Shown piece by piece: positions 25,444-63,164 of a DNA stretch of 64,000 nucleotides (its first letter is position 1; the number at the start of each line of letters is the position of its first letter). Under the pieces are notes generated by a model, which worked only from the letters and a program-made list of their open reading frames with translations, did no database searches and was not told the origin of the DNA. Source of the stretch: a virus (lineage: Duplodnaviria; Heunggongvirae; Uroviricota; Caudoviricetes); the IMG/VR virus record IMGVR_UViG_3300032116_000060, positions 39,086 to 103,085 of that record. One strand, written 5' to 3'. Made by a program: the position numbers and the translations under genes.

Positions 25444-25451
25444 ATATTAAG

Positions 25452-25521: not shown

Positions 25522-25526
25522 GTTTG

Positions 25527-25597: not shown

Positions 25598-25603
25598 CTA
25601 TTG

Positions 25604-25675: not shown

Positions 25676-25679
25676 ATCG

Positions 25680-25871
25680 TTATTTCCATTGAGTCTTTCG
25701 GCTGTGTTTCCAACTTCTACACTCTCTTACTCTTACAACCTTACCACTACCATGTCTTTTTGCTCTGAACGATGATGGATGACAATCATAATACCAACTT
25801 CCATTTCGTTTGTTACAAATCATACAATAGTTGTAGATTTGATTCATTTGTTTTACTCTTTCTTCTTTCAT
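25680..25871 (-). CDS. small Cys/His-rich zinc-ribbon-like protein
   Basis: 63-aa ORF (CMICNK...DCH). Confidence 0.3.
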   Translation of the reverse strand: MKEERVKQMNQIYNYCMICNKRNGSWYYDCHPSSFRAKRHGSGKVVRVRECRSWKHSRKTQWK

Positions 25872-26074
25872 TTTGCATTAGGTTTAACTAATGCTTGTCA
25901 AATAATTGTTTCATAGTTTTACATTTATATTATTCACCGCCGTAAATAACAACTTTATCAAATTTTAATCCACCCCAATACCTTATAATAACACATTTAT
26001 TGTTGTAGCAAAATTCTATACTTGGATAATTGTTTTTTAAATCAAAGTTTATTTTCATAGTTTTATTCATTTAG

Positions 26075-26146
26075 CACCCCCTAAAAGATTCGAACTTTTA
26101 TCAACGGTTTTGGAGACCGGTATGCTAGCCATTGCACCAAGGAGAT
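26075..26146 (-). tRNA. tRNA-Trp(CCA)
   Basis: anticodon loop CUCCAAA; G73; acceptor with two G-U pairs. Confidence 0.55.
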
Positions 26147-26237
26147 AGTTAATAAGGCGTTACGCATCCATCTGTAACTTTACTTTTTTTGAGTCCGGAT
26201 GTGGCCACACCAACTCTGGGAACGATTACCTTATTTG

Positions 26238-26311
26238 TTGGAATAGAAAGACTCGAACTTTCAACTTTCACCGTATCAGGATGACACTCTAACCAATTGA
26301 GTTATATTCCA
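26238..26311 (-). tRNA. tRNA-Ile(GAT)
   Basis: perfect acceptor UGGAAUA; D arm ACUC-AAUUGGUUA-GAGU; anticodon loop CUGAUAC. Confidence 0.6.
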
Positions 26312-26317
26312 ATTTTG

Positions 26318-26393
26318 TATAGATGGTTGGATTCGAACCAACGTGTTCCACTTCCCAAAAGTGGCGAGATAAACCTGCCTCCTCTACATCTAT
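26318..26393 (-). tRNA. tRNA-Pro(TGG)
   Basis: anticodon stem CCACU/AGUGG, loop UUUGGGA. Confidence 0.55.
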
Positions 26394-26443
26394 ATGGCCG
26401 GCTCCGATTTTTGTATAGAACGTTGCCGAAGTAAACTATTTTG

Positions 26444-26517
26444 TGAACCCGAATGGACTCGAACCATTGACTTTCTCATTAAAAGTGAGAAGCTCTAACC
26501 AACTGAGCTACGAGTTC
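26444..26517 (-). tRNA. tRNA-Lys(TTT)
   Basis: D arm GCUC-AGUUGGUUA-GAGC; anticodon loop CUUUUAA. Confidence 0.65.
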
Positions 26518-26523
26518 ATTGTG

Positions 26524-26596
26524 TGGAGCCTTGAGGAATCGAACCGCATCCTTCCGCTCTTCAGGCGGACGTACGCACCAGCTATACGAAAGCTCC
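26524..26596 (-). tRNA. tRNA-Phe(GAA)
   Basis: anticodon stem UCCGC/GCGGA, loop CUGAAGA. Confidence 0.6.
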
Positions 26597-26601
26597 AATT
26601 G

Positions 26602-26683
26602 TGCCTGCAGATGGACTCGAACCACCGAACTCCGAAGAGAGGAGATTTACAGTCTCCAGCAATTGCCACTATGCGATACAGGC
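26602..26683 (-). tRNA. tRNA-Tyr(GTA)
   Basis: 82 nt with a long variable hairpin UCUCUUCGGAGU; anticodon loop CUGUAAA. Confidence 0.6.
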
Positions 26684-26691
26684 ATAAATTG

Positions 26692-26765
26692 TAGAAGATA
26701 TAGGATTCGAACCTATGACCCTTTGGATGTAAACCAAATGCTCTAACCAACTGAGCTAATCTTCT
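26692..26765 (-). tRNA. tRNA-Val(TAC)
   Basis: perfect acceptor AGAAGAU; anticodon loop UUUACAU. Confidence 0.65.
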
Positions 26766-26796
26766 ATTTTCCCACAATGTCAAAGAACCTTTCTTG

Positions 26797-26868
26797 CGTT
26801 GATGGTAGGATTCGAACCTACGACCAATAGATTAACAGTCTACTGCGCTACCACTGCGCCACACCAAC
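26797..26868 (-). tRNA. tRNA-Asn(GTT)
   Basis: D arm GCGC-AGUGGUA-GCGC; anticodon loop CUGUUAA. Confidence 0.6.
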
Positions 26869-37086: not shown

Positions 37087-37959
37087 TTATTTTAATTTTT
37101 CATATAAATACTCAGCATATTTTTTATTACCAAAATAACCTAAATGGGCATCATAAACTGGCGTTTCATCCAATATTCTCCACTTTTTCTTTTCTGCTAA
37201 ATTCCATATGGTAGGTAAATTAATTACATTTTCATTTGTGGAATCAAATAGTTTTAGTTTTTTAATTAGCTCAGCCGTATTGTTTCTATCCCCAAAATTA
37301 ATAGAACTTGCAAAAATAGTTTCATTTGGGTCTCTAATGTATGAGATTTTTAATTTATCTAAAAATGAATAAAACATTGTTAATTGTCTTAATAATCTTT
37401 TCGTCTCTACATCATAATCAATATAGAAATCAACAATCTTATTTAGTAATTCATCATTCTCTTTTAGTTCCTCAAATGTTATGGTTGAATGTAGGCTAGA
37501 AAAATCTCTACTGAATGATACTTTTGAAAACCAGGAATCATGCCAATCTCTACTAATTTCAATTTCATCATATTGATTTACATCACTACCTCCTTTGTAA
37601 GAAATGGAAACGGCAAAATAATCGCTATGTTTTCGGGAATAGACCTCAAATCTGGCAGGTTGTAATGGTATATCAAATATGAAAAGGATTTTAGATAGCT
37701 CTTCTAATGTTTTAGTGCTGATGAAATCATATGTTTTTCTTATCAATCTATCTAACCCACCACCCTCTTTTGCTTCGTTAATAACTTCTAAATTCATCAT
37801 CGAACCTAATATGTTTCCATAGGATAGTTCTTTTTGAGTAGCCCAATTTTCTATATCTAATTCAGTTGTATAATACCTCCACGCTGCCGATTGGTATCCC
37901 AATGCCCCTCCACAGCTTAGACTACTTCCATTAATATATAATTGAGTGTATTTATTCAT
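37087..37959 (-). CDS. SGNH-hydrolase-like protein with variant block I (GSS instead of GDS)
   Basis: N-terminal YINGSSLSCGG and C-terminal DAHLGYFG (DxxH block V-like). Confidence 0.4.
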   Translation of the reverse strand: MNKYTQLYINGSSLSCGGALGYQSAAWRYYTTELDIENWATQKELSYGNILGSMMNLEVINEAKEGGGLDRLIRKTYDFISTKTLEELSKILFIFDIPLQPARFEVYSRKHSDYFAVSISYKGGSDVNQYDEIEISRDWHDSWFSKVSFSRDFSSLHSTITFEELKENDELLNKIVDFYIDYDVETKRLLRQLTMFYSFLDKLKISYIRDPNETIFASSINFGDRNNTAELIKKLKLFDSTNENVINLPTIWNLAEKKKWRILDETPVYDAHLGYFGNKKYAEYLYEKLK

Positions 37960-38282
37960 TACAAAGAGAATGATTCACCACATCCACAGGTTCTACTTGC
38001 ATTTGGATTCTTAAATTCAAATCCTTTTCCATTTAATCCATCAGAAAAATCTAATTCAGTTCCAAACAAATACATAAACGATTTACCATCTACTAAAATT
38101 TTTACATCTTTATCCTCAAACTGCATATCCGATGGTTTAACATCATCATCAAACGAAAGGTCATATGATAATCCACTACATCCACCACCTTTTACAGCAA
38201 CTCTTAAATAAGGTGTCGTATTACCACTTTCTTCAATAAGTGATTTAACTTTTTTAGAAGCGTTTTCTGTAACCGTAATCAT
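37959..38282 (-). CDS. iscA: A-type iron-sulfur cluster carrier (IscA/ErpA family)
   Basis: 107 aa; conserved Cys triad (GGGCSG ... CGCGESF). Confidence 0.8.
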   Translation of the reverse strand: MITVTENASKKVKSLIEESGNTTPYLRVAVKGGGCSGLSYDLSFDDDVKPSDMQFEDKDVKILVDGKSFMYLFGTELDFSDGLNGKGFEFKNPNASRTCGCGESFSL

Positions 38283-38680
38283 TATTCAAAATTTAATTGT
38301 TCTAATCCTTGTTTAACTCTATAATCATTTATCGCAGATTTAATTGCATCCTCCGCCAAAACACTGCAATGGATTTTTACAGGTGGTAAGGCCAATTCTT
38401 CAACTAAATCCATATTATCAATTGTAAGTGCCTCATCAATTGATTTACCTTTTAACCATTCGGTGGCTAATGATGAAGCTGCAATCGCCGAACCACATCC
38501 AAAAGTTTTAAACTTAGCATCAGTTATTACACCATCATTTACTTCAATCTGCAATCTCATTACATCACCACATTCCGGTGCTCCAACCAATCCCGTTCCA
38601 ACATTTGATTTACTCTTATCTAACGTTCCTACATTCTTTGGGTTTTCATAGTGCCCAAGCACTTTTTGACTATACGCCAT
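38282..38680 (-). CDS. iscU: Fe-S cluster assembly scaffold IscU
   Basis: 132 aa; GAPECGD, GCGSAIASS, LPPVK, HCS motifs. Confidence 0.85.
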   Translation of the reverse strand: MAYSQKVLGHYENPKNVGTLDKSKSNVGTGLVGAPECGDVMRLQIEVNDGVITDAKFKTFGCGSAIAASSLATEWLKGKSIDEALTIDNMDLVEELALPPVKIHCSVLAEDAIKSAINDYRVKQGLEQLNFE

Positions 38681-39617: not shown

Positions 39618-40094
39618 TTATTCTCCTTTCATTATTTTATACCTTCTTACTCTCTCTTCTTCGGTAAGGAATTCAGTATATGTATGTTCGATTTTTGCCT
39701 TTATACAAGTTTCTGGCAATCTTTGATTTCTCAAATAATTGTTTACATATCCTAATATATTGTGAGTTCCAATTGGATTAGCAGAATGAACATAAATTTG
39801 TGGTAATGGTATGCCTCTAGTAATGCTTTCCGCCACTAAAAATCGTGCACAATCCATACCTGTCTTTTCTTCAATCCTTTTGTAATCCAATTCGTAGTTT
39901 GGTTTTACATTAGTATAGTATTCCTGCATAGCACCTTCACCTAAATCATGATCTAGGGAAATAACTTCATAATTCTCTAAACCATTTAGACGAATATGAG
40001 CAACGAACTCATCATAATTCCTAACCACTTCCCAACTCAATTCAGTTGGTATCCTTACATCATCTAGATAAAGATATATTTTTTCTTTTTTCAT
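39618..40094 (-). CDS. hypothetical protein
   Basis: 158-aa ORF; first gene of a tightly overlapped six-gene operon. Confidence 0.5.
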   Translation of the reverse strand: MKKEKIYLYLDDVRIPTELSWEVVRNYDEFVAHIRLNGLENYEVISLDHDLGEGAMQEYYTNVKPNYELDYKRIEEKTGMDCARFLVAESITRGIPLPQIYVHSANPIGTHNILGYVNNYLRNQRLPETCIKAKIEHTYTEFLTEEERVRRYKIMKGE

Positions 40095-40558: not shown

Positions 40559-40599
40559 CAAATATACAAAATAATTATGAATTTTCCAAATTTATTTTT
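40559..40599 (-). promoter_or_regulatory. class-A-like promoter box
   Basis: CAAATATACAAAAT...GAATTTTCCAAAT. Confidence 0.35.
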
Positions 40600-41360
40600 T
40601 TTAAGATAGATTCCGCGAGTATTATATTTCCTTTTCTATTTAAATGATAATCATAGAAAATTTTATCTTTGTATTCAATTTTTATTGGATTGTTTAAAAC
40701 CAAATTAAAAAAGGATGTATTATCATTTATTTTAATAAATCTATTTTTTTCATCAAATTCAGAGAAATCTCCTAACCAATCCAAATAGTAGCATCTCCAA
40801 CCCAATTCAGTTTCTAAATTATCAATAATTGAATCTATGGATTTATAAATTGAGTATATTCTATCTTTTAATATTTCTCTTACAACAGAATCAGGCCGAT
40901 GTATTAGTAAATTATACCTACTGAATTCTTCATCAGTAATTATACCAAAATCCTCTCTCCCCAAAGATGTAAATTGGAAAATTAAAATAACATCTCTTTT
41001 TTCAGATTCTAATTTATAAAAGTTTTCTAAAAGCTGTCTATTCGATGTTATACTCCCACCATTATATTTTTTCTTATATACTTTTCTACCCAACGATTCA
41101 CCTACTTTATTGGTAAATGATAAATTATCTTTAATAATCATTTCTTCTTTTCCAATAAATTCTTGCTGATCAATCCACTGTAAGTGTGTTTCATTTTCTA
41201 TTGTATTAGCATAAAACTTTTCAAATAGTTCTGGTCTATTTTCTTTCCAATAGTCTAAATATAGGCCCTGTCCCCAAGTGAAACTATCTCCTATAAAGAC
41301 TATTTCTTTTGAGTTATCCGAAGTGTTTGATAATTGAAGTTGATAATATATGTTGTGCAT
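40575..41360 (-). CDS. SGNH/GDSL hydrolase
   Basis: block I FIGDSFTWGQGLY and block V DYHLN. Confidence 0.6.
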   Translation of the reverse strand: MHNIYYQLQLSNTSDNSKEIVFIGDSFTWGQGLYLDYWKENRPELFEKFYANTIENETHLQWIDQQEFIGKEEMIIKDNLSFTNKVGESLGRKVYKKKYNGGSITSNRQLLENFYKLESEKRDVILIFQFTSLGREDFGIITDEEFSRYNLLIHRPDSVVREILKDRIYSIYKSIDSIIDNLETELGWRCYYLDWLGDFSEFDEKNRFIKINDNTSFFNLVLNNPIKIEYKDKIFYDYHLNRKGNIILAESILKKINLENS

Positions 41361-41997
41361 CTTTATTTAAATGTAAATCAATAATTTTATGATTATTAAT
41401 ATCGATATCTATTTTATACTCATTTAATAATGGATTGAAACAATAATGATTTTTTTCATTATATAAATACTTAACAAATTTATGTGGTTGGAATTTGTAA
41501 AAATCACCCAACCAATCCATAAAACAGTATTGAAATTTATATAGCTCTGAATAGTATTTTAGTATCCCATCGATAAATTTATAAAAGTTAAATGCCCTTT
41601 GCTCAAACATATCATTAAACGATGGGTTTATTGAATCATCATCAACGATGTTTAAATCTCTAAATTGGTATCTACTTATAGTTGTAAATTGAAATACTAA
41701 TTTTTGTATAGAATTATTATAAGTATCTATTAAAGGGATAGTATCTAATAATATATCGGTATTACTACCGCCATTTTTATTTCTTTTTATTGGTTCTAAA
41801 TTATAGTAATCGGATACTAAACCTGTAAAGGATAATTTATCTTTATATACTAAATCCTGCTCTCTAATTAAATCGGAATGACTAGGATACATACCTCCTA
41901 TATTAGTTGGTAGTTCTCTACCCTCCTCTTTCCATTTGTAAAAATACAAACCCTGTCCCCAAGTAAAACTATCACCTAAAAAAAGTATTTTACCCAT
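41314..41997 (-). CDS. SGNH/GDSL hydrolase (paralog of 40575..41360)
   Basis: block I FLGDSFTWGQGLY and block V DLHLN. Confidence 0.6.
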   Translation of the reverse strand: MGKILFLGDSFTWGQGLYFYKWKEEGRELPTNIGGMYPSHSDLIREQDLVYKDKLSFTGLVSDYYNLEPIKRNKNGGSNTDILLDTIPLIDTYNNSIQKLVFQFTTISRYQFRDLNIVDDDSINPSFNDMFEQRAFNFYKFIDGILKYYSELYKFQYCFMDWLGDFYKFQPHKFVKYLYNEKNHYCFNPLLNEYKIDIDINNHKIIDLHLNKDAQHILSTSIIKHFG

Positions 41998-43216
41998 TTT
42001 CTATTTCGTTTATGAAATCTGATTTGAATTTATTTAAAATCGTAATCATATTATTATAATTATGGTCTAAAACATCATAGTTCTCCTTCACTATATTATG
42101 TAATTCTTTTATATCTCTATCACAAATAGTTTTATATTCGTCTAATATGTAATAAAGACGATTTGTATGGTCTGCCAATTCATCATAGCTCTCATCAAAA
42201 ATAAAATCAAAAGTTTTAAAACCTAACTTTTTTAATTCACTTAACATATTAGTATATGAGAATGTAAGAAATGGTTTTTTTTGAATAAATGGTTTTAAAG
42301 TTTTTTCCGATGTTTGTATAATTTGCCCTTCACATGATTCATACATAGTTTCAAAAACCATTTCAAAAAGAGAATCACTATATCTATTTAGATTGGTTAA
42401 TAACGAATACTCCATCGTTTTAAACTCTTCATCATCAAATGGTTTTGGCTTAAAGATATATGAATCATCGATTTCCACCAATCCACCCTTACCTCTATTG
42501 TAATCATATACAATTTGTGAGTAGTTAAATCCTTGCCCTAATTCATTATTTCTATAAGTTGAAAAGAATGCCAAATTATTTTTATCCCATAGATTATTAT
42601 CATCTACAAATTTATAGTAATGCATTCTATCGGTGTTTATACTATTAGCCGCAGAATAGAAATACTTTGTTTTTTCTTTATTATAGTTAGCATCAAAGTA
42701 ATCATTTTTCAATAACTCATTATCTAATTTTTCAATTGTCATAGCATTCTGAGCTGCAAAATAACCCACATCACTATCATATTTAAATTTAAAAACAGTT
42801 GAAAATAATTTATATGGTAATTTTAATTCTGAAAAATAACTATTAAATTTAACAAAATTTTCTTTATACTCCATTAAAGTATAATTTGTCCAATCAGTAT
42901 CCATTTCCCAAAATATTACCTTTTTTATTTTGGTTATATTATTTGAAACTAAATCAGTAAAATCTTTTCTATTTGGTAATGAAAATAATTGCCTAAATGA
43001 ATCATCAAAGCCTATAATTAAATAGAATTTATCTAACCCATTTATTTCTTTTTCATTTTCTATAATATTGTAATCAGATAAAAAAGAATAAAAATAATCT
43101 TTTCTTGCTTTAAAAAATTCTCTCTCTGGTTGATGGATGGAATCTAAATGAAAATCATCAAATTCTAAATTTTCATTATGATTAGGTGCATATTTGTAAA
43201 ATACCAAATTTTTCAT
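41990..43216 (-). CDS. large paralogous protein A of unknown function (possibly glycan-active)
   Basis: 408 aa; C-terminal half colinear with 46581..47774 (LGFKTFDFIFDESYD / FGFKTFDWLVDESYD; NYDVLDHN / NYDVLEHN). Confidence 0.6.
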   Translation of the reverse strand: MKNLVFYKYAPNHNENLEFDDFHLDSIHQPEREFFKARKDYFYSFLSDYNIIENEKEINGLDKFYLIIGFDDSFRQLFSLPNRKDFTDLVSNNITKIKKVIFWEMDTDWTNYTLMEYKENFVKFNSYFSELKLPYKLFSTVFKFKYDSDVGYFAAQNAMTIEKLDNELLKNDYFDANYNKEKTKYFYSAANSINTDRMHYYKFVDDNNLWDKNNLAFFSTYRNNELGQGFNYSQIVYDYNRGKGGLVEIDDSYIFKPKPFDDEEFKTMEYSLLTNLNRYSDSLFEMVFETMYESCEGQIIQTSEKTLKPFIQKKPFLTFSYTNMLSELKKLGFKTFDFIFDESYDELADHTNRLYYILDEYKTICDRDIKELHNIVKENYDVLDHNYNNMITILNKFKSDFINEIENG

Positions 43217-43217
43217 A

Positions 43218-44240
43218 TTACTTATTTGTGATAGAATTTTTAATGTAATTTACTATTTTTACCTGCATCTCTCCATAAATCTTACCATCGGTGCTTTCTT
43301 TTGTAGGCAATAAAACTTTTAAGAATTCTTCAAATTTTAATAAATTATCTTCTTCAAAATAATCCTTTTCTAAATTTATTAGTTTTGATAAAAATGGTTT
43401 TATAACACCTTTATAAAAGATTTTATTAGAAAAGTATGATGGATGATGGTCTAATGTCAGATGGACATATCTTAAAGATTCTTCCAAATGGTTTGCGGAA
43501 TAATCTAACATCCCCCCCATATTACCTTTACATTTTTTCGTAACTATGCTGTATTTTGATTGATTTTCAAAATATGCTAGATGATTAATAGGGTATTCAT
43601 ATTCATAAGTTTGAACATAATTTTTTATATCAGATTTTCCCCATAACCTTTCAAATTCTTTTGTTGAAACATCCCAACCAAAATGTATAAAATAATTTGA
43701 ATAATTTGTTTTTAATAAATCTACAATTTCTTCTATATTTTTTATATGTAAATTATAGTAATCTTCTAAATTATCAGTTTCAACAAAATAATCATTTCGG
43801 ACATTTCCTCCTATTATATTAAATTCAGTAATGCCATACTTTTGGGATTTGGTCAAAGAGGAGTATGGTGAGGTAAATATATTTTCATAACTTTGTGTAT
43901 TTCTTAATAAAGCACTTAATTGAACAATAGCTACCCCTTCCTTTGTATTGGAGTTTTTAATTCTATTTTTAAGAATCTCTTTTATAACATGATTTCCAAA
44001 ACTACCTCCCCCAAAATTATTTACTTTGTATCCACTTTGATTATTATAAGCCAAATCAAATTCTAAAAAATTACTTACCGGCTTTGTAGATTGAGTATGC
44101 ATTGAATATAGTAGTATATCCAACTCACCTAATTTGGGATTCATTTCCCACATTGGTGCTTCGGTGAAACTACAACCAAAAAAATCTATTTGTTTCATAT
44201 TGTGGTGACACCTCTTTTTTGAACAACTTTCGTTGCACAC
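43218..44240 (-). CDS. SGNH-like protein with GCSFT block I variant
   Basis: FFGCSFTEAP near the N-terminus; DHHPS near the C-terminus; paralog of 47759..48778. Confidence 0.5.
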   Translation of the reverse strand: MCNESCSKKRCHHNMKQIDFFGCSFTEAPMWEMNPKLGELDILLYSMHTQSTKPVSNFLEFDLAYNNQSGYKVNNFGGGSFGNHVIKEILKNRIKNSNTKEGVAIVQLSALLRNTQSYENIFTSPYSSLTKSQKYGITEFNIIGGNVRNDYFVETDNLEDYYNLHIKNIEEIVDLLKTNYSNYFIHFGWDVSTKEFERLWGKSDIKNYVQTYEYEYPINHLAYFENQSKYSIVTKKCKGNMGGMLDYSANHLEESLRYVHLTLDHHPSYFSNKIFYKGVIKPFLSKLINLEKDYFEEDNLLKFEEFLKVLLPTKESTDGKIYGEMQVKIVNYIKNSITNK

Positions 44241-44929
44241 TCATTAGCGAATTTAATTGATTCCTTTAAATCCTTTGTTTCCACATATTTGAATACTAAT
44301 GATGCCATAAATGTATCACCCGCACCACTTAAATCTCTTACCTCTATATCTCTATTTACCGGAAACACTTCATTTTGATAAAGGCAACCTCTCTCACTCA
44401 TTGTTATAATAAGTTTATCTGCCCAATCAACATACTTAGCTCCTTTCTTTTCACACAACTCCCATTCAAATTCATTCATTTTTATATAAGTGTAATCTGA
44501 AAAGGTTTGTAGGTTTATCGGCTTTTTTGTATCAATAAATGTAAGAGGATGCCTTCCACTTATTGAGTGTATATCACTTTCGGTTAAGAATCCTTTATCG
44601 TAATCTGATACCACCACAGCATCAACATCCCAATTTACTCTATTAATGTCAAATGCAGATTTCACCTTATCCAATGTATCCACTCTAATAAACATTTGGT
44701 TTGATTTAACATCTACATACCTAGTTTTAGTGATTTGCTCTTTGTTGGTAATTAACTCAACCTTTGCTCCTAATGATTCTAAATTTGCCCTAACGTTTCC
44801 GGCCATACCATCGTTTGTTACCGTTCTTGATGGCTCAAATACTGGTGCAGGTGCTTCTGGACATAAACGAGTTGCGTTTCCATAAATGAATATATCGGTG
44901 CAACTATCTCCTATAACTAAAATTCTCAT
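44195..44929 (-). CDS. PfkB-family sugar kinase, RfaE/HldE (heptose-7-phosphate kinase) -like
   Basis: RILVIGDSCTDIF...CPEAPAPV...GMAGNVRANLESLG and GAGDTF signature. Confidence 0.6.
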   Translation of the reverse strand: MRILVIGDSCTDIFIYGNATRLCPEAPAPVFEPSRTVTNDGMAGNVRANLESLGAKVELITNKEQITKTRYVDVKSNQMFIRVDTLDKVKSAFDINRVNWDVDAVVVSDYDKGFLTESDIHSISGRHPLTFIDTKKPINLQTFSDYTYIKMNEFEWELCEKKGAKYVDWADKLIITMSERGCLYQNEVFPVNRDIEVRDLSGAGDTFMASLVFKYVETKDLKESIKFANECATKVVQKRGVTTI

Positions 44930-44942
44930 AATGATATATATT

Positions 44943-45347
44943 TTACCAACTGATTTCCCAGTCTTTAAATTCTGATGCTAAACAATCAATCTTATAATCC
45001 TTTCTACCACCTACTACTTCTTGTATCCGATTCTTAGCGGTGTTTCGAATACCATTTAAGCCATGCGTTAGAGCTAACTTATTTGGCCCTTCCGAACCAT
45101 TTCTCACATTAGTTTCGTTTGTCCATATGTGTAGATTCATTTGTGATAAAACAACTATTGCTCTTATCGTTTCCCCTGTCAATTCCTCTTTACTTTCTTT
45201 CAAACATAGGTTTATATCATGCACAATGTCTGCAATTTCTTTTGCATATTCTTCCTTATGTTCGGTAATGAAAACTTCCTTTAACTGAATTATACTCAAT
45301 CTATCAATTAGTTCAGCCAATGTTGGTAAATACTTTCTTTGTTCCAT
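44943..45347 (-). CDS. hypothetical protein
   Basis: 134-aa ORF. Confidence 0.5.
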   Translation of the reverse strand: MEQRKYLPTLAELIDRLSIIQLKEVFITEHKEEYAKEIADIVHDINLCLKESKEELTGETIRAIVVLSQMNLHIWTNETNVRNGSEGPNKLALTHGLNGIRNTAKNRIQEVVGGRKDYKIDCLASEFKDWEISW

Positions 45348-45349
45348 AG

Positions 45350-46588
45350 TTATAAAAATTTATGTAAATGTTTTGGTATCGGTAGGTTATTGTAAAGTGA
45401 AGACCAATTTAAGTAATTTTTTAGATTTGTTAAGTGTTCTTCTTTATCACCCTCTATCCCTTGTTTAATATGTAATAAGTAATTTTTTATATCTCCCAAT
45501 AAATAAGGATTCTTTTCAACTCCTTTTATTTCAGTTCTACTAAAATACTCTTCTATTTCAGCTTCTAATCCAAAGTTTTTAGCATCTAAATGTTTCGGCC
45601 AACTTACTATTTGTAATCTAATGTTAGAATAATCTGCTATATACCCATTATCAATTAGGTAATCATAGGTTTCAAAAAATTGAAATACATTTAATAAAGT
45701 TGCGGTAAAGGTAAAATCATAGCTAATGTTAGGATTATTCTTTACCTCTTCGTTTAATTTTTTTAGATTAGATAAGAAGTTTTGTGTTTTAAAATTAGTT
45801 CTTTGAAATTCCCCCGTCTCAAACAATCCATCTAATGATATAGAATAAACTACATTTTTAAATCCTTTTGTGAATTCAAAAATAGAAGTATCTTTGTATT
45901 CTAATATAGAAAAGTTTGTTTGAAATTGTAGTGTCACATTTTTAGGATGTGGTATAATTTCTATGAAATCCCATACTTTTCTTGTGTACAATGGTTCTCC
46001 TCCTGCTAAATAAACATATTCCAAATGCTCTAATTCTTCTTTATTAAAATCATTTTTAAGAATGTGAAGTTTCTTTTTATTAAATGGAGCAATGTGTTCA
46101 TATACTCTGTGGTCTAATTTCCATTGTTTAAGTTTTTCTCTCACAGGATCTACAACTTCCTTTTCCCAATACTCAGCTCTTTCATCATACCAACTTGTAG
46201 AATCCCTCTCTCCACACATTCGGCATTTAAAATTACATTGATTAGAAAATCTTACATCTAAAAATACCAATTCGTTTTTATCAGATTCACCTTTTATAAG
46301 TTTATCATATTGTTTTTGAAAATGTGTATTCTTTTCTTGCCTAAAACTTCTCCCACCTCTTTCTTCGGTTTTCCAACAGGCATCACATATCTTATTCTTT
46401 ATTCCACTTTTTAAATCCTCTCTTAATTTTTCATAAGATTCGTTTTTATAAAATTGTTCAAAATCAACATAATCATTAAAGTTCTCTTCAAAGAAATCAC
46501 TTGCCATACAACACGGCTTTACCTTTCCATCCTGAAAAACGGAAAAGTGCATAAACGGCATCACACAAAATGTTTCTTTATTATACAT
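45350..46588 (-). CDS. radical SAM domain protein
   Basis: CNFKCRMCG (CX3CX2C) plus additional Cys clusters. Confidence 0.65.
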   Translation of the reverse strand: MYNKETFCVMPFMHFSVFQDGKVKPCCMASDFFEENFNDYVDFEQFYKNESYEKLREDLKSGIKNKICDACWKTEERGGRSFRQEKNTHFQKQYDKLIKGESDKNELVFLDVRFSNQCNFKCRMCGERDSTSWYDERAEYWEKEVVDPVREKLKQWKLDHRVYEHIAPFNKKKLHILKNDFNKEELEHLEYVYLAGGEPLYTRKVWDFIEIIPHPKNVTLQFQTNFSILEYKDTSIFEFTKGFKNVVYSISLDGLFETGEFQRTNFKTQNFLSNLKKLNEEVKNNPNISYDFTFTATLLNVFQFFETYDYLIDNGYIADYSNIRLQIVSWPKHLDAKNFGLEAEIEEYFSRTEIKGVEKNPYLLGDIKNYLLHIKQGIEGDKEEHLTNLKNYLNWSSLYNNLPIPKHLHKFL

Positions 46589-47774
46589 CGAATAATTTAT
46601 ATATTTTATCTATTTCTGATAAGGCAAATTCATTTACCATTTTATGATTATGCTCTAATACATCATAATTTTTTTCTATTTTAGATTTAAGTTCATCGAA
46701 TGGTGTATCTAATAATTTTTTAGTTTCCGCTAAAACCATTTCAAATCTTTTCTTATCATCCAATTCATTATCATAACTCTCATCTACCAACCAATCAAAT
46801 GTTTTAAACCCAAATTCTTTGAGTAATTTAATTACACCATATTGAGCAAAAACTATAAATGGAGACTTGTAACAAAAACCCTTAAAAATCTTTTCACTTA
46901 ATACAATGCCACAAGGAGAATGATAACGGGTTTCAAAAATTACTTGAAATAAAGATTCAACACTATCATTTAATGCTAAGTTTTTTACTTGATTGAAATC
47001 ATCATATTTTAATTTTTTGGGATGATACCCAATACTTAAATCCAATTCTCCCAAATGAGAAACAAAAGAGTTCGTATTTCCGGTATTTGCATGTAAAAAT
47101 TTTTCATTTACAAAATCTGAAATTTCAAACCTTTTTTTATTCCTATTATATAATGGAAGAAAAAACGATGTATTTACTTTATCCCAATAATTCCCCTTTT
47201 GTAAAAATTGATAAAAATGGAGTCTTTCTTCTTTTACATTACAATTTGCTGAAAATAAATGAAACTGCTTTTCTATCTCATAATTAAAATCTAAAGTTTC
47301 CGAATAGTTATGGAATAATTGAAATGGAAAACATCCAAATGTATATGTAGCATTTATTTTAGTGAAGTTAAATCTAGATTTGAAAATGTTTCTAACAAAT
47401 ACAAATCTTTCATCATCTCCAAAAATTTCGTAAAAAAAATCTTCTATTTCCAGTATTTTATGAAAAGTATCCCAATTTACTTCATTTTGATAAACTACAA
47501 CCTTTTTATAATTACCACTATCTAATTGCCTCTTAACATCTAAAAACCATTGCCTTTCAGAAATTAATGATTCGGCCATACCATTATATGTAAGAAACAA
47601 TATGGTATTATCTTCGGAATAATTAAATGTAAAGTTGTATATCTTTTCTAAAAATGGATACCAATAAATGTTGCCTAACACCCAATCTTTATCTTTAAAA
47701 TCGGTTGTCTTTACAAATTTACCATTTGCATTTTCATCAAAATCTATTGGATATATGTTTATAATATTTCCCAT
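46581..47774 (-). CDS. large paralogous protein B (paralog of 41990..43216)
   Basis: 397 aa; shared C-terminal blocks with protein A. Confidence 0.6.
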   Translation of the reverse strand: MGNIINIYPIDFDENANGKFVKTTDFKDKDWVLGNIYWYPFLEKIYNFTFNYSEDNTILFLTYNGMAESLISERQWFLDVKRQLDSGNYKKVVVYQNEVNWDTFHKILEIEDFFYEIFGDDERFVFVRNIFKSRFNFTKINATYTFGCFPFQLFHNYSETLDFNYEIEKQFHLFSANCNVKEERLHFYQFLQKGNYWDKVNTSFFLPLYNRNKKRFEISDFVNEKFLHANTGNTNSFVSHLGELDLSIGYHPKKLKYDDFNQVKNLALNDSVESLFQVIFETRYHSPCGIVLSEKIFKGFCYKSPFIVFAQYGVIKLLKEFGFKTFDWLVDESYDNELDDKKRFEMVLAETKKLLDTPFDELKSKIEKNYDVLEHNHKMVNEFALSEIDKIYKLFDV

Positions 47775-48778
47775 TTTACGATTTCAGATTTTACAAAATA
47801 ATCCCAATAAAAATAAGAGGGATGGCCATTTGGATTGAATGTATTGTTTTCTAATTTCTCAAATACTCTTTCTATTGGATACATAGGTTTTATTTGGGTA
47901 GGAGTTCCATCTATATCCTCAACCACTAATGGTGTATATTCACTATCACCATTTCTATAAATGTTTTTCAGATAAACCCATTCCGTTATTCCACCATATT
48001 TACAATTTTCATCATCTAAAAACCAAAAATTATCTAAATCCAATAATCCAAATAAATTCTTAATATATGGATCCGAATTTACAAACGATAATCTTTTTTT
48101 AGTGGCAAATTGTTTATTAATAAAAATAGATCTAAATTGTGAATCTATTGTTGTATCATCAATATAGAATAGAGGGGCAAATGGCAAACTAAATGATTCA
48201 GTTTTGCAAAATACTTTATATGGTATTTTGTTAGCCTTACAATAATTTTGTAGTAATAATATGTGTATAATTGAATCTATATAAGTTGATTCAATGCTAA
48301 ACAAATTTTCTCCGATACTTTTCGCTATCTCTACTAAATTTTTATTTGTTGAAAAATTTGGCGATACGTCACTTAATGTTCCGAATTGAAAAAATCCGTT
48401 TTCACTTCCATCAAATAAATAATTATTATTGCGAACTGAACTATTATCACTTGCAATGTTTTTAATAATCTGAAAAGAGGTTGGAAAATAATGTGATTTT
48501 CTTGTGAATTCGGTGCATTGTAAGATAATAGAAATTTTCTTACCTTCTTTTAGTAATCTATCTGCAATCGATAATATAGATAATACCGAAGTAGATATAT
48601 TATTACCAGCCATTCCCGCATTATATACTTTATTTCTATAATTACGATGAATTGCTTCCGGATACGAACCTAATGGAGATACACCATCTATATCAGGTGT
48701 CATCCCATTTAAAACCATATCCTCATTAAGAGTATTAAAATTAGTGAAGGAACACCCTGCACAAATTATCTCTCTCAT
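47759..48778 (-). CDS. SGNH-like protein with GCSFT block I variant (paralog of 43218..44240)
   Basis: ICAGCSFTNF near the N-terminus; GHPSYF near the C-terminus. Confidence 0.5.
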   Translation of the reverse strand: MREIICAGCSFTNFNTLNEDMVLNGMTPDIDGVSPLGSYPEAIHRNYRNKVYNAGMAGNNISTSVLSILSIADRLLKEGKKISIILQCTEFTRKSHYFPTSFQIIKNIASDNSSVRNNNYLFDGSENGFFQFGTLSDVSPNFSTNKNLVEIAKSIGENLFSIESTYIDSIIHILLLQNYCKANKIPYKVFCKTESFSLPFAPLFYIDDTTIDSQFRSIFINKQFATKKRLSFVNSDPYIKNLFGLLDLDNFWFLDDENCKYGGITEWVYLKNIYRNGDSEYTPLVVEDIDGTPTQIKPMYPIERVFEKLENNTFNPNGHPSYFYWDYFVKSEIVKWEIL

Positions 48779-51458: not shown

Positions 51459-52379
51459 TTATTGGAGATTTTTGAATAACTGAGGAACTTGTCCATATAC
51501 CGGTAACTTACCATCCCATTTGTTAATGTACTCTAATTGTAACAACAATGGTGTCAATGTTTGTTGCTTCATTCTATTTGATTCAGCTTCTGCTTTTGCT
51601 GATGTCAACATAGCCTGAGCGTTACCTTCCGCAGTTGCCACCTTAATCTTAGCCTGTGCTTCTGCCGTTTTAACTTCGTTCTCTGCTCTTAATGCTGCCT
51701 GAACTGCATTATTCTTAGCTTCAATTGATTTCTTAAATGTTTCAGGATAAATCAAATTCGATGTGAACTGATTGATAACAAATCCTTCTTTTAGTAATTG
51801 TGCATCTAATAATCTACGAACTTCGATTTCGAATACTGCTCTATTACTAATCAATTCATCTGCCGTATATTTGTTAGTTGCTAATCTGAATGCATCATAT
51901 ACTGCTGTCTTTAAGAATCCTTCCTCAATATCAACCAATGGTCTACGATACTTACTAAATATAGCCGGTACTTTTTCTCTTTGTACTGAATAGTTCATAA
52001 TAGGCGATACACTAAACTCCGAACCATCCTTTGAGTTTACAATGAATGAATTATCCTCATCCTCTGTCTTTCTATATTCTTTGTGTTGAATAAATGTAGG
52101 GAACTCATAAATTGCAGTTGTGATTGGATTATAAAATACCATTCCCGTAACTGCTACTACATCATCCACACCTTTGTTATCACCATAAAGATTTACTTTG
52201 ACACCCACATGCCCTGCATCAATTCTTTCACAAGATTTAAAAAAGATAATTGATAATAGGAATACTCCGATTCCAATGATTGTTGTTTTGACCATTTTTT
52301 TGATTTTTAATTGTTGTTTTAATTGTTGTTCCTCGCGTTCTTTAGTTTGGCGAGCATACCTTTCTTCAAATGATTCCAT
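51459..52379 (-). CDS. SPFH/band-7 (prohibitin/stomatin-like) membrane protein
   Basis: N-terminal TM helix, SPFH-like core, Ala/Glu-rich coiled-coil tail. Confidence 0.65.
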   Translation of the reverse strand: MESFEERYARQTKEREEQQLKQQLKIKKMVKTTIIGIGVFLLSIIFFKSCERIDAGHVGVKVNLYGDNKGVDDVVAVTGMVFYNPITTAIYEFPTFIQHKEYRKTEDEDNSFIVNSKDGSEFSVSPIMNYSVQREKVPAIFSKYRRPLVDIEEGFLKTAVYDAFRLATNKYTADELISNRAVFEIEVRRLLDAQLLKEGFVINQFTSNLIYPETFKKSIEAKNNAVQAALRAENEVKTAEAQAKIKVATAEGNAQAMLTSAKAEAESNRMKQQTLTPLLLQLEYINKWDGKLPVYGQVPQLFKNLQ

Positions 52380-54348: not shown

Positions 54349-55590
54349 TTACCACACAATAGTTTCTTCATTTTCTACCTTCTCATCTTTCATTTCATTG
54401 AAAAGATTTTGGTCAGTTGTTTTGATGTATTTCTGAACCAACTGCTTCACATAAGTTCTCTCACTTTCCAATCCTCCATCATTAGAGAAGAAAGGTAAGA
54501 TAGCAACCTCTGCGGCCTCCATAAGGGAGAATCCATCGTAAAGTAATCCTGCCATTTCTACCGATGCTCTCGTTGAAACCATATTACTCAACTTAGCAAC
54601 CTCTGAACGGCTCACCTCTCTTGTGTTGTGAGCAATCTCACCAATCGCTTTAAGGTCATCATCACTCACCTCAGGATACATCTTTTTAAGTAGTGTGAAT
54701 TCTTCTTCACTATTCAACACATCCATTTCAATTGTAACAAAACGGTCTAAGATAGCTCTATCCAATACCCTAGTCGCGGTGTATTCATTACCGATGTTTG
54801 CGGTAGCGATGAAAGTAACACCTTCTGCCACCTTTACAATCGGTGAACCCTCTGCCTCATCCAAACGAAGGTATCGTTGGTTTTGGTCTAATACTGTCAT
54901 CAAAATGTTCCAAGCATCAGGGTGAGCTCTACTTAACTCATCCAAAAGGATAATTGCGTTAGGAGTTTTAATTGCCTTAACGAAAGCCGATTCAGAGAAG
55001 TAAGTTCCTGTCTCTTTATTGAATTGGGTATTACCAACCAAAGTTGCTCGCGGGTCTTGCGTTGAACCTAAGTTGAAGTAAAAATCAGGTCGTTGTAATT
55101 GGGTAACTAAGAATTTAGCCGCCATAGTTTTACCACAACCCGCCGGCCCTGTCATCATAATGTTCTTACCTCTAACGGCAGAACGAATAAGGTATTTCCA
55201 TTTTATATCCTTGATAATTAGATTATCAGGTTTTAATTTGATTGAATCCTCGTGGATAATACGAAGTAATTCAGAGTGCTCACTTGTGGCCTCAATGTTC
55301 ACCTCACCATTTTCTTTTAATGGTTTAACAAGCATATTGTATTCGGCCATCTCAACCATTCTAAAAGAATTACTACCCTTTGAATTTACATAGCCTCTAA
55401 TTGCTTTACCATTTTCACCTGCTTCACGTCTCATTACCGAGCCAACAAATGTATTGGAGTATTCACCTTCGGTATTTACCAAAAGGTATCGATTTCCAAC
55501 TTTTTCGATTTTGTAGATTTCATTAGTGAAACCTGCCTCATAAACTTTTTGTGATTTTTTCATAACTCTATTTTTGTTTTTAACTCTCAA
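54349..55590 (-). CDS. cobS: MoxR-family AAA+ ATPase, CobS-like
   Basis: Walker A MMTGPAGCGKT and Walker B ILLDELS. The track start is a TTG at 55588-55590; an ATG lies at 55561-55563. Confidence 0.75.
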   Translation of the reverse strand: MRVKNKNRVMKKSQKVYEAGFTNEIYKIEKVGNRYLLVNTEGEYSNTFVGSVMRREAGENGKAIRGYVNSKGSNSFRMVEMAEYNMLVKPLKENGEVNIEATSEHSELLRIIHEDSIKLKPDNLIIKDIKWKYLIRSAVRGKNIMMTGPAGCGKTMAAKFLVTQLQRPDFYFNLGSTQDPRATLVGNTQFNKETGTYFSESAFVKAIKTPNAIILLDELSRAHPDAWNILMTVLDQNQRYLRLDEAEGSPIVKVAEGVTFIATANIGNEYTATRVLDRAILDRFVTIEMDVLNSEEEFTLLKKMYPEVSDDDLKAIGEIAHNTREVSRSEVAKLSNMVSTRASVEMAGLLYDGFSLMEAAEVAILPFFSNDGGLESERTYVKQLVQKYIKTTDQNLFNEMKDEKVENEETIVW

Positions 55591-61603: not shown

Positions 61604-62473
61604 TTAGAAATTCACACCAAAACCAAAAGTTCCGGTATTAATTATAGGGTCATAATCACCCTTTATTGTGAAATTTTTATAATCATGTAACCCACCTATT
61701 TTGAATGTAGTAAATCTATCTAAATATTTTGGAAAAGTAATGTATCCCAAATCATCTCTACCTCTCCATTTCACATCTTCAGAAACAGTTCCAACCATAA
61801 AGTGAATACCCGTTCTCTTTATTCTTTTACCTGCACCGATGTAAAAACTATTTCGTTGAACTAAATCATTTACCAATGGAAAATCAATTTGTGTTATATT
61901 ACCATATGGGAAGAATGTTGAATTATCTCTTTCAACACTTGAATTGTATTCCATTATAAAGTATCCCTTATTTCCTATTGTAAAAAATCCTCCAATTTGT
62001 TTATCAGTTGTTTTCTGAATACCAAAACTAATTACAGGTTTTTTACCTCTAATGGTATCTCTTTTACCATCATCATAAACATAAATTCTTTGTGGTTGAC
62101 GGTATCCCCAATCGTTCCAATACCAAGATGGTTGCCAAAAGTTCCAACCAAATGCAGGTGCACCCCACATATCCCATCTATTCCAACCCCAACCCCAATT
62201 GTTCATACCCCAATATGGGTCTCTAATAATAATATTAGAACCAGGTCTTGTTCTGTTCGGTCTATTATACTCTCTAGGTGATTCGTTTCTCCAACTACTA
62301 ACATCGTTTCTTTGTGGAATTGATTGTTGTACTGATGGTGTACTTCTTTGTGGTTGTGGTGGATTACTTCTCCAATTACTAACTTGTGAAAAAGTTAAAC
62401 TTGGAACTAAACACAATAATATAATTAAATTTTTCATAGTGTTATCTTTGATATAAATATACCTTTCCGGCAT
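61604..62473 (-). CDS. secreted Trp-rich repeat protein with an OMP-like C-terminus (ends ...FGFGVNF)
   Basis: signal peptide MKNLIILLCLVPSLTFSQ; WGWGWNRWDMWG...WYWNDWGY repeats; C-terminal aromatic residue. Confidence 0.55.
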   Translation of the reverse strand: MPERYIYIKDNTMKNLIILLCLVPSLTFSQVSNWRSNPPQPQRSTPSVQQSIPQRNDVSSWRNESPREYNRPNRTRPGSNIIIRDPYWGMNNWGWGWNRWDMWGAPAFGWNFWQPSWYWNDWGYRQPQRIYVYDDGKRDTIRGKKPVISFGIQKTTDKQIGGFFTIGNKGYFIMEYNSSVERDNSTFFPYGNITQIDFPLVNDLVQRNSFYIGAGKRIKRTGIHFMVGTVSEDVKWRGRDDLGYITFPKYLDRFTTFKIGGLHDYKNFTIKGDYDPIINTGTFGFGVNF

Positions 62474-63164
62474 TATTTATACAAATAGCACTCATATTTT
62501 CAATCCAATCCCCACTATTAAAATATCGTTTTCCAGCAATCATTCTATCAGCTGGTTGATGGATATGCCCACAAATAACTCCATTACACCCTTTTTTAGT
62601 GGCCATGCTCAATGCGGTAACTTCAAAATCGTTTACATAATTTGTTGCCACCTTAACACTTTCTTTAATTTTTTGGGATATGGATATATAGGGTAACTTT
62701 CTCCATTTACGATATGAATTATATACTCTATTTAACCAAAGTGCAAAATCATATCCTACCGCACCTATCTTTGATAACCATTTGTATTTGGTTATAAAAA
62801 CATCAATAACATCTCCGTGGAAAATATAGTAACTCTCCATAGTATTATTGATGTCCAACTTATAATCTTCTCTAATTTCAATCGAACCCAAATGTGTTCC
62901 GATAAATTCTTGTATAAATTCGTCATGATTCCCCCTTATCCAGATAATTCTGGTTGTATTTGATAATTGTAATAATTTAGATATAACTTTAGTATGTTGT
63001 TTTTTCCATTTAGTTCCTCTATTCAAAGCCCACCCATCGACTATATCTCCATTAAGAATTAGTAAATCAGTTGGATGTGTTTCCAAAAATTCTATAAATT
63101 CTTCTGCTTTAGAATCTTTAGTTCCTAAATGTAAATCTGATACTATAATAGCCTGATAATTCAT
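62442..63164 (-). CDS. calcineurin-like metallophosphoesterase (LpxH-like)
   Basis: DLHLG, GDIVD, GNHDE, GHIHQP motifs. Confidence 0.7.
   Translation of the reverse strand: MNYQAIIVSDLHLGTKDSKAEEFIEFLETHPTDLLILNGDIVDGWALNRGTKWKKQHTKVISKLLQLSNTTRIIWIRGNHDEFIQEFIGTHLGSIEIREDYKLDINNTMESYYIFHGDVIDVFITKYKWLSKIGAVGYDFALWLNRVYNSYRKWRKLPYISISQKIKESVKVATNYVNDFEVTALSMATKKGCNGVICGHIHQPADRMIAGKRYFNSGDWIENMSAICINNAGKVYLYQR

Follow-up and report, generated by a model that had tools for sequence, protein, structure and literature searches.

A probable glycan-building and glycan-tailoring operon with paired GT-B glycosyltransferases and SGNH-like proteins in a large freshwater phage

Genes at the locus

The IMG/VR virus record IMGVR_UViG_3300032116_000060 represents a large, uncultured freshwater phage of the class Caudoviricetes, and the stretch analyzed here, called the window, comprises 64,000 nucleotides of it (positions 39,086 to 103,085 of the record) with a GC content of 0.33. 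At 40575-48778 the window carries nine minus-strand open reading frames (ORFs), named g9 to g1 in transcription order, that an initial annotation had described as a sugar-modification island of nine co-directional, tightly packed genes. The arrangement is as described: neighboring ORFs are separated by -47 to +13 nt, with an overlap at five of the eight junctions. The nine genes and a possible outlying relative are listed below (aa, amino acids).

g9, 47759..48778, minus strand: 339-aa SGNH-like protein, G-C-S variant (MREIICAGCSFT ... NGHPSYF); first in the operon, with a 16-nt overlap with g8
g8, 46581..47774, minus strand: 397-aa predicted divergent GT-B glycosyltransferase, paralog of g3
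g7, 45350..46588, minus strand: 412-aa radical SAM enzyme with an N-terminal twitch (auxiliary iron-sulfur) domain
g6, 44943..45347, minus strand: 134-aa helical protein, DUF4254-like
g5, 44195..44929, minus strand: 244-aa compact PfkB-family sugar-phosphate kinase of the HldA/HldE-domain-I type
g4, 43218..44198, minus strand: 326-aa SGNH-like protein, G-C-S variant (MKQIDFFGCSFT ... DHHPSYF)
g3, 41990..43216, minus strand: 408-aa predicted divergent GT-B glycosyltransferase, paralog of g8
g2, 41314..41997, minus strand: 227-aa SGNH-like protein, G-D-S type (GDSFTWGQG ... DLHLN)
g1, 40575..41360, minus strand: 261-aa SGNH-like protein, G-D-S type (GDSFTWGQG ... DYHLN); last in the operon
Fifth SGNH-like ORF, 37087..37959, minus strand: 290 aa, G-S-S-L-S ... 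DAHL; possible outlying member, 2.6 kb downstream of the island

Because gene callers choose the ATG at 44198 on identical contigs, that codon, and not the GTG at 44240 from which the gene had first been drawn, is most likely the start of g4 (326 aa, MKQIDFFGCSFT), and with it the G-C-S motif of g4 lies as far from the N-terminus as that of g9. Contigs identical to the window occur in both JGI and NCBI metagenome assemblies. Neither megablast with the island and 14 kb of flank nor tblastn with g8 or g6 found a match among 50,697 cultured-phage records, and thus the phage has no cultured relative in that collection. The nine-gene order is kept in two related phage contigs, L001 and L092, with protein identities of 38-90%. 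The description of the island as A/T-rich even for this genome holds for g1-g4 and g7-g9, whose GC contents of 0.24-0.28 compare with 0.336 +/- 0.036 in 52 other genes, but fails for g5 and g6, which at 0.34 are typical of the genome.

All nine proteins are soluble and acidic, the catalytic motif of the SGNH-like members begins at residues 7-24, and neither a transmembrane segment nor a signal peptide was found in any of the nine (maximum Kyte-Doolittle mean over 19 residues of at most 1.18), so that their chemistry should be cytoplasmic. A scan of 39.5-50 kb yielded 72 promoter-like sites as compared to 73 in shuffled sequence and four terminator-like sites as compared to 2.7, and, lacking an excess over the shuffles, is uninformative on the boundaries of the operon.

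The large paralogs g3 and g8

The two proteins of about 400 residues, g3 and g8, had been singled out as the larger halves of a duplicated two-gene module and as candidates for a new enzyme family. Their duplication is borne out: residues 175-405 of g3 and 162-391 of g8 are 35% identical over the C-terminal 240 residues (E 7e-33), the N-terminal ~160 residues cannot be aligned, and in a sample of 199 family members the two are each other's nearest non-orthologous relatives. Since both possess orthologs in related phages, at ~60% identity, the duplication predates those phages.

Sequence comparison gives the family no name. The 142 homologs of g8 in a collection of 5.8 billion proteins are all unnamed and without a Pfam domain; Pfam glycosyltransferase (GT) models match neither g3 nor g8 at E<=1 nor any of 61 family members at E<=0.01, and the family profile matches no PDB sequence at E<=10. 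An AlphaFold2 model of g8 built on the family alignment is nevertheless confident (pLDDT 84.1, pTM 0.85), and a test of g3 and g8 for membership of the GT-B fold found the two Rossmann-like alpha/beta domains and the interdomain cleft that mark it. The model resembles GT4 enzymes, the phage T4 GTs and GT10 enzymes at sequence identities of only 6-13%, with GT10 at the upper end (11-13%). Many of the top matches, among them PimA, PimB', WlaC/PglH, WaaG and WaaB, act on lipid-linked or membrane acceptors, and the T4 GTs score no better than the GT4 enzymes that act on lipids or small molecules. Among predicted viral structures the best matches are uncharacterized proteins of uncultured Caudovirales, one of them fused to a UDP-glucose/GDP-mannose dehydrogenase, and there are further matches to a protein of Mimivirus LCMiAC02 and to a 'fucosyltransferase C-terminal domain' protein of Bodo saltans virus. 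As modeled, g3 and g8 are divergent GT-B glycosyltransferases and not a new fold, which replaces the proposal of a new enzyme family, albeit with one that has no Pfam model.

Conserved residues of the family include R184, E281 and E294-K295, together with an invariant D-E-S-Y-D signature that, taken alone, occurs in at least 582 confirmed IMG/VR stretches. The first four residues resemble what we take to be the donor-binding pattern of GT10 enzymes, and the string F-E-T ... S-E-K recalls 'FENS...TEK' of that family. Assignment of g3 and g8 as GT10 alpha-1,3-fucosyltransferases was considered and rejected, as the Pfam model Glyco_transf_10 does not match and the motif FxxxFENSxxxxYxTEK is absent. 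GT-B enzymes hold the nucleotide-sugar donor in the C-terminal domain and the acceptor in the N-terminal one, which explains why only the C-terminal blocks of g3 and g8 are colinear and predicts that the two would use related donors and different acceptors. Both are acidic, with net charges of -20 for g3 (isoelectric point, pI, 4.9) and -12 for g8, in a family with a median pI of 5.9.

The SGNH-like proteins

The tandem genes g1 and g2, initially called canonical GDSL/SGNH hydrolases, are paralogous (30% identity, E 2e-27) yet depart from the canonical pattern. The match of g1 to Pfam Lipase_GDSL falls below threshold (E 0.053, 14.1 bits as compared to a cut-off of 23.6); g2, g4 and g9 match neither Lipase_GDSL nor Lipase_GDSL_2, and g2 matches no Pfam model at E<=1. 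Block I reads GDSFT in g1 and g2 and GCSFT in g4 and g9, with the serine kept and the aspartate replaced, while in place of the DxxH of block V there is DYH in g1, DLH in g2, DHH in g4 and, without the aspartate, N-G-H in g9.

These variants belong to a larger group. A superfamily assembled by iterating hidden Markov models (HMMs) over the ORFs of 95 fetched loci has 84 distinct members, spread over 36 loci, and in nearly every one G-[CD]-S-x-T follows the initiator methionine by a few residues. In an alignment of 75 members the glycine and the C-terminal histidine are present in all 75 and the serine in 74, and the residue between glycine and serine is cysteine in 59, aspartate in 13 and serine in two. 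An arginine outside the four classic SGNH blocks is also invariant (75/75; position 93 of g9, in TEFTRK, and FTSLGR in g1) and, judging by this conservation, may be a family-specific catalytic or substrate-binding residue. Pfam matches within the alignment are to DUF6071 (16 of the 75, best 9.6e-14), for which a literature search found no functional study, to Lipase_GDSL_2 (four, best 3.9e-5) and to Lipase_GDSL (three). The superfamily profile matches 32 PDB sequences at E<=10, mostly GDSL/SGNH esterases (best E 0.002). This combination of motifs and profile matches supports placement of g1, g2, g4 and g9 in a divergent, phage-rich, SGNH-like Ser-His superfamily in which G-C-S is the rule. The fifth SGNH-like ORF downstream is picked up by both the family and the superfamily HMMs and keeps the aligned glycine, serine, arginine and histidine.

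For the SGNH-like half of the proposed duplicated module the evidence is thinner than for the GT half. Both g4 and g9 contain GCSFT and HPSYF, yet no similarity between them is detectable by BLAST (E 0.14). Alignment of the g4 and g9 family profiles with hhalign gives a probability of 91.5% over 44 columns (71% for g9 with the families of g1 and g2), and a single superfamily HMM captures both. Linked at the profile level only, this half of the module is at best a very old duplication. The g4 orthologs of L001 and L092 have diverged to 38-41% identity. The g9 family, comprising 31 clusters, has no Pfam match and its profile retrieved nothing meaningful from PDB; G8, H319 and many other positions are invariant in its alignment, and C9 and S10 nearly so. 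Of 80 SGNH-like members, 33 (41%) directly adjoin a same-strand gene of the GT family, at most 60 nt away and usually overlapping it, in both orders. The pair of an SGNH-like gene and a GT gene is thus a recurrent two-gene unit well beyond the window.

The kinase g5 and the radical SAM enzyme g7

The PfkB-type kinase and the radical SAM protein recognized at the outset both score above family cut-offs. For g5 the Pfam PfkB match has E 1.8e-19 (70.6 bits, cut-off 25.8), and the best curated family is TIGR02198 rfaE_dom_I (E 2.4e-35), although at 122.2 bits g5 lies well short of the cut-off of 345, as it does for PRK11316 (81.9 bits, cut-off 521). The closest solved relative is the D-beta-D-heptose 7-phosphate kinase HldA (PDB 4e84, E 3e-11), with which g5 shares an N-terminal PEAPxPV and an SGAGDT motif. 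Among phages, g5 matches phrog_8133 (3e-81) and shares 36-48% identity with the protein annotated as 'putative carbohydrate kinase' in S-SM2, P-TIM68, P-SSM2 and S-CAM1/3. In S-SM2 and P-TIM68 the neighbors of this ortholog include the phosphoheptose isomerase GmhA, an HldE-domain-II nucleotidyltransferase, nucleoside diphosphate (NDP)-sugar epimerases, transketolase and GTs.

The g7 product matches NCBIfam NF033640, N_Twi_rSAM, over profile positions 2-377 of 398 (E 1.5e-78, 264.6 bits, cut-off 170). It has the CxxxCxxC motif at C118/C122/C125 and additional N-terminal cysteines at positions 8, 26, 27, 68 and 71, and Pfam SPASM matches residues 8-72. A single-sequence PDB search with g7 gave no match, and a literature search on the N-twitch radical SAM family found no functional study. 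A role in maturing ribosomally synthesized, post-translationally modified peptides is less likely, since the neighbors across loci are consistently nucleotide-sugar enzymes.

Two kilobases downstream of the island, at 37959-38680 on the minus strand, lie an IscA/HesB-like gene (107 aa, Pfam Fe-S_biosyn) and an IscU/NifU_N-like gene (132 aa); no such pair was found in the fetched parts of L001 and L092. This phage-encoded iron-sulfur assembly pair could serve g7 as a two-cluster enzyme.

The conserved 134-residue protein g6

The most conserved gene of the island is g6, which is 90% identical in L001 and L092, where the other island genes are 38-62% identical. Its family comprises at least 8000 clusters at 90% identity (521 at 50%), and the best 120 of these at least 8000 clusters are all 81-99% identical to g6. 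In L094, a 233-kb phage contig unrelated to the window, the neighbors of g6 are an SGNH-like gene and a radical SAM gene different from g7; in contig L096 a g5-like kinase directly follows it. A homolog in a deltaproteobacterial metagenome-assembled genome (MAG) forms the C-terminus of a protein whose gene is surrounded by those for RmlC, two epimerases, an aldo-keto reductase and a 925-aa multi-GT2 protein.

The g6 protein falls short of Pfam DUF4254 (15.1 bits, cut-off 27, E 0.021), and weak DUF4254 matches occur in 13 of 42 diverse family members (best 1.8e-4); on these scores g6 is probably a distant relative and not a member. A link between DUF4254 and the heptosyltransferase RfaF has been noted for Flavobacteria (PMC9425974), the only lead from a literature search on DUF4254 that found no functional study. 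The sole PDB match of the g6 family profile is the dimeric dUTPase of Campylobacter jejuni (E 0.11), and E12, E37 and D40 of g6 align with what we take to be the metal ligands of that enzyme. We regard g6 as a putative component of nucleotide-sugar metabolism, possibly an all-alpha NTP-pyrophosphatase-like enzyme. That g6 might be the missing nucleotidyltransferase of the pathway was considered and rejected, as the protein is all-helical and has no CTP_transf_like match. Elsewhere the family extends to ~610-aa proteins (P0371, P0389, P0391, P0399, P0415 and P0420) with two g6-like stretches, of which P0389 also has a weak methyltransferase-like region.

Homologs of g6 that are 71-75% identical are found in single-amplified genomes (SAGs) and MAGs of marine Flavobacteriales/Bacteroidota (L097-L102). 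In the SAG L099 the homolog, at 5974-6384, stands in a chromosomal setting with Obg, an M61 peptidase, a pyridine-nucleotide disulfide oxidoreductase and MetK. These homologs suggest a recent exchange with Bacteroidota and give a possible hint as to the host. The hint conflicts with cyanophage-like pigment genes in the relatives, L001 and L092, in which a heme oxygenase and a ferredoxin-dependent bilin reductase (Fe_bilin_red) lie between the orthologs of g4 and g3 (L001 14450-15696; L092 10110-11356). These two genes are not present in the window phage.

Genomic neighborhoods

The reading of the locus as a sugar-modification island is upheld by the heptose-7-phosphate kinase relative and the GT-fold paralogs described above and by the neighbors of the GT family at large. 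Among 83 non-identical loci that carry the GT family, with radical SAM genes counted within 10 kb, the following neighbors occur.

N-twitch radical SAM enzymes: 50 of 83 loci, up to six copies per locus
UDP-glucose/GDP-mannose dehydrogenases: 32 of 83
GDP-mannose-dehydratase-type epimerases: 29 of 83
Cytidylyltransferases: 16 of 83
Transketolase halves: 16 of 83
Carbamoyltransferases: 15 of 83
B12-radical SAM enzymes: 14 of 83

SGNH-like genes are present in at least 35 of these loci. Some of the loci belong to T4-like phages with gp32, gp59 and PhoH, some hold up to seven GTs plus carbamoyl- and methyl-tailoring enzymes, and in L004/L005 the cluster adjoins an ORF of 2200 aa. Recognizable structural genes are not found beside the island in the window. 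Its flanks include a cREC_REC-domain protein (39618-40094, minus strand), a Band_7/SPFH protein (51459-52379, minus strand) and a MoxR/CbbQ-like AAA ATPase (54349-55590, minus strand), which are 68-86% identical in the relatives and thus place the cassette in a fixed genomic slot.

Elsewhere in the window, sugar-related genes are an RmlC-like dTDP-sugar 3,5-epimerase (16203-16757, minus strand; Pfam 1.1e-61), found by tblastn, and a family-2 glycosyltransferase (63264-63959, minus strand; 6.4e-13). The window also holds 23 tRNA genes at 16924-26868, all on the minus strand, 22 of them in a dense 4.4-kb block (22441-26868) that covers most amino acids. A Pfam census of ORFs of at least 120 aa outside the island identified a Tad3-type Thoeris inhibitor (3e-26), a GroEL-type chaperonin (5e-77), an IMPDH/GMP-reductase-type protein (8352-9422), the UV endonuclease UvdE (10278-11183), a flavodoxin-like protein (11222-11794), an RNA ligase, a trimeric dUTPase, a dCTP-deaminase-like protein, a SET domain, an FG-GAP repeat protein and two calcineurin-like phosphoesterases, one at 62442-63164.

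A proposed pathway and its acceptor

Considered together, the nine genes probably constitute a self-contained, cytoplasmic operon with which a large phage of lytic type builds and tailors a glycan. The folds or families of g3/g8, g5 and g7, the paralogy, the coupling of genes and the nucleotide-sugar neighborhood are established by the comparisons above, and from them we infer substrates, order of steps and acceptor. In the proposed scheme g5 would phosphorylate a sugar phosphate, by homology a heptose-7-phosphate-like compound, at C1 to yield a heptose-1,7-bisphosphate-like product that feeds a pool of activated sugar. Acting together with g6, g7 would subject the sugar, or its nucleotide form, to a radical-based change (epimerization, deoxygenation, or C-C or C-H chemistry). 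The GTs g8 and g3, with their shared donor-binding C-terminal domain and unrelated N-terminal domains, would then add related sugars to two acceptor positions, each being translationally coupled to a G-C-S SGNH-like enzyme (g8 with g9, g3 with g4), and g9, g4, g2 and g1 would add or remove O-acyl groups on the sugars.

Several points weigh against this scheme. The roles of all nine proteins are predictions from sequence or model, and the sequence of the island holds nothing that identifies the acceptor. The SGNH assignment is built on motifs and on weak profile matches, the best at E 0.002, and the AlphaFold model of g6, with four helices, is of low confidence (pLDDT 63.5) and gave an uninformative fold search. 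The g5 protein lies far below the HldE-domain-I cut-off and is ~70 aa shorter (244 aa as compared to a profile of 315 positions), so that heptose is suggested by analogy only; moreover, a nucleotidyltransferase, GmhA and GmhB were not found in the island, which leaves the g5 product with no obvious route to an NDP-sugar unless host genes or distant phage genes supply one. Finally, the 83 loci were chosen for the GT family, so that the frequencies of neighbors are conditional on that choice and have no background comparison.

With respect to the acceptor, three candidates are ranked, a virion protein standing slightly above a host envelope precursor and both above DNA. A phage-made macromolecule, most likely a virion protein, is a tentative first choice. 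Giant viruses of eukaryotes have no lipopolysaccharide (LPS) to remodel, and an acceptor made by the virus is favored because structural relatives of the GTs occur in such viruses and because of the 2200-aa ORF beside the L004/L005 cluster. Just as tentative, and put a little lower, is a precursor of host envelope glycans on the inner side of the membrane: LPS, capsule or exopolysaccharide precursors would be altered at the cytoplasmic face, blocking superinfection or changing recognition. It is in this way that the literature reads the 'LPS' clusters of cyanomyoviruses and pelagimyophages (PMC7029224; PMC12801897), and the orthology of g5 with the kinase of the cyanomyovirus LPS-type clusters, the preference of many top structural matches of g8 for lipid-linked or membrane acceptors and the link between DUF4254 and RfaF in Flavobacteria (PMC9425974) agree with it. 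The island, however, encodes no membrane protein, flippase, polymerase, initiating phosphoglycosyltransferase or exported enzyme; its SGNH-like proteins, without signal peptides, cannot act on a mature surface glycan; and the GT family has structural relatives in giant viruses of eukaryotes. To our knowledge, no experiment has shown surface remodeling by the cyanophage clusters, which also counts against this reading. Seroconversion of the Gtr/Oac type (GtrABC/Oac), which employs integral-membrane transferases, a flippase or an acyltransferase, is disfavored, as is action in the periplasm or at the outer surface, since none of the nine proteins has a membrane segment or a signal-like N-terminus. 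Phage DNA as the acceptor is unlikely. Hypermodification would have the GT-B enzymes glycosylate a hydroxylated or hydroxymethylated pyrimidine, with the kinase, radical SAM and SGNH-like enzymes supplying and tailoring the sugar, as protection of the genome from host nucleases. A system of phage GT-Bs that attach mono- and di-heptose to 5-hydroxymethylcytosine has been reconstituted, along with a cytidylyltransferase and a kinase-like enzyme (bioRxiv 10.1101/2023.12.21.572611), arabinosyl-5-hydroxycytosine pathways employ heptose-pathway-like enzymes (PMC13326640), and the cytoplasmic location of all island proteins would suit such a role. Yet the hydroxymethylase or dioxygenase partners that define the published DNA-glycosylation clusters (bioRxiv 10.1101/2023.12.21.572611, PMC13326640) were not detected in the 64 kb of genome covered here: neither the island nor the 47 window ORFs of at least 120 aa outside it (E below ~4e-6) gave a match to a ThyA-like hydroxymethylase, a TET/JBP dioxygenase or a C5-methyltransferase. 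The T4 enzymes do not stand out among the structural matches of g8, loci with up to seven GTs and carbamoyl- and methyl-tailoring enzymes look more like oligosaccharide assembly, and g3 and g8 are strongly acidic, unlike an enzyme that binds the DNA groove, although charge is a weak heuristic.

It is also conceivable, if very improbable, that the island is no pathway at all and represents a loose set of unrelated, fast-evolving accessory genes whose modules are a by-product of dense packing. Its GC content is lower and its divergence faster than those of its flanks (38-62% as compared to 51-91% identity to L001/L092), in the relatives unrelated genes, for a heme oxygenase and a bilin reductase, interrupt the cassette midway, and g5 and g6 differ from the other seven genes in composition and conservation. 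Against this, gene content and order are kept across phages that share only ~60% protein identity, dozens of viral contigs that are otherwise unrelated contain the same families together, 33 of 80 SGNH-like genes adjoin a GT gene, and the adjacency of g6 to a kinase and to a radical SAM gene repeats in distant contigs. A glycan-building operon remains the preferred interpretation, and a broader version of it is possible although speculative, namely that the island is one case of a widespread, uncharacterized viral glycosylation system composed of pairs of a D-E-S-Y-D family GT-B and a G-C-S SGNH-like enzyme, N-twitch radical SAM enzymes and g6 as a small all-alpha NTP-pyrophosphatase-like protein. 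Such a system would place radical-modified, O-acylated glycans on virions or DNA, with g6, which phages and Flavobacteriales chromosomes have in common at 75% identity, as a new nucleotide-sugar enzyme.

Significance

Carbohydrate islands are among the commonest and least understood accessory regions of large aquatic phages, and we know of no test of their function, whether on the host surface, in coating the virion or in protecting DNA. Assignment of one substrate and one acceptor at this locus would provide annotation for thousands of viral genes and would show what radical SAM chemistry does in phage glycan pathways. The analysis overturns no concept, as the supposed new enzyme family is a divergent member of a very well-known fold: the 400-aa proteins are, by fold, the most ordinary part of the island, and the 134-aa g6 is the least explained.

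Comparison with known systems

Earlier work on cyanomyoviruses and pelagimyophages has already reported carbohydrate or 'LPS' islands and radical SAM cassettes from their accessory regions (PMC7029224; PMC12801897), and thus a feature of this kind is known. The novelty lies in the composition, that is, a GT-B family without a Pfam model, a coupled superfamily of G-C-S SGNH-like proteins, N-twitch radical SAM enzymes and g6 with its extraordinary conservation, four protein families that are abundant in viral metagenomes and of which none is characterized. Like these marine clusters, which in pelagimyophages are hypervariable and tied to host recognition, the island occupies an accessory region of a large aquatic phage and combines a kinase, GTs and sugar-tailoring enzymes, to which pelagimyophages add radical SAM cassettes; with the 'LPS' clusters of P-SSM2, S-SM2, P-TIM68 and S-CAM1/3 it shares an orthologous 244-aa kinase of the HldE-domain-I type (phrog_8133). 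The marine clusters differ in having a recognizable NDP-heptose route (GmhA, nucleotidyltransferase, epimerases, transketolase) and transferases of the GT-A, GT2 or GT11 type, whereas the island lacks all of these and relies on the GT-B family without a Pfam model, the N-twitch radical SAM enzyme, four SGNH-like genes and g6.

At the level of single families the pattern is likewise one of partial resemblance. Like known GT-B enzymes (the GT4 enzymes PimA, WaaG and PglH, the T4 alpha- and beta-glucosyltransferases, and GT10), g3 and g8 have a conserved Arg, Glu and Glu-Lys in the C-terminal domain; unlike them, they are separated by identities of 6-13%, match no Pfam GT model and carry an invariant D-E-S-Y-D of their own. 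The island SGNH-like proteins share with SGNH/GDSL hydrolases of the carbohydrate esterase, or sialate O-acetylesterase, type an N-terminal G-x-S-x-T-x-G, an N-x-G...G segment and a C-terminal His that often follows Asp. They differ in the Cys that replaces Asp in 59 of 75 members, in a block V of DxH or xGH, in the extra invariant Arg and, for g4 and g9, in ~100-150 additional residues, with all members in the window below Pfam thresholds.

Phage DNA-hypermodification clusters, such as those for glucosylated hydroxymethylcytosine in T4, the 5mYOX/ThyS-associated GTs and the arabinosyl-5-hydroxycytosine of RB69 and DLP3, resemble the island in their cytoplasmic GT-Bs and sugar activation, heptose being a known DNA-linked sugar. 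Their defining partner, a pyrimidine hydroxymethylase or hydroxylase, or a C5-methyltransferase with a dioxygenase, was not found in the 64-kb window, and radical SAM and SGNH-like genes, present in the island, are not mentioned in bioRxiv 10.1101/2023.12.21.572611 or PMC13326640. With systems that glycosylate virions the contrast is that in the window the island does not lie beside recognizable structural genes. The likeness lies in the enzymes, as the capsid and tail tube of mycobacteriophages and the fibrils and capsids of giant viruses, in which structural relatives of g8 are present, are decorated by virus-encoded, soluble GTs and tailoring enzymes that act in the cytoplasm on proteins made by the virus (PMC12619734).

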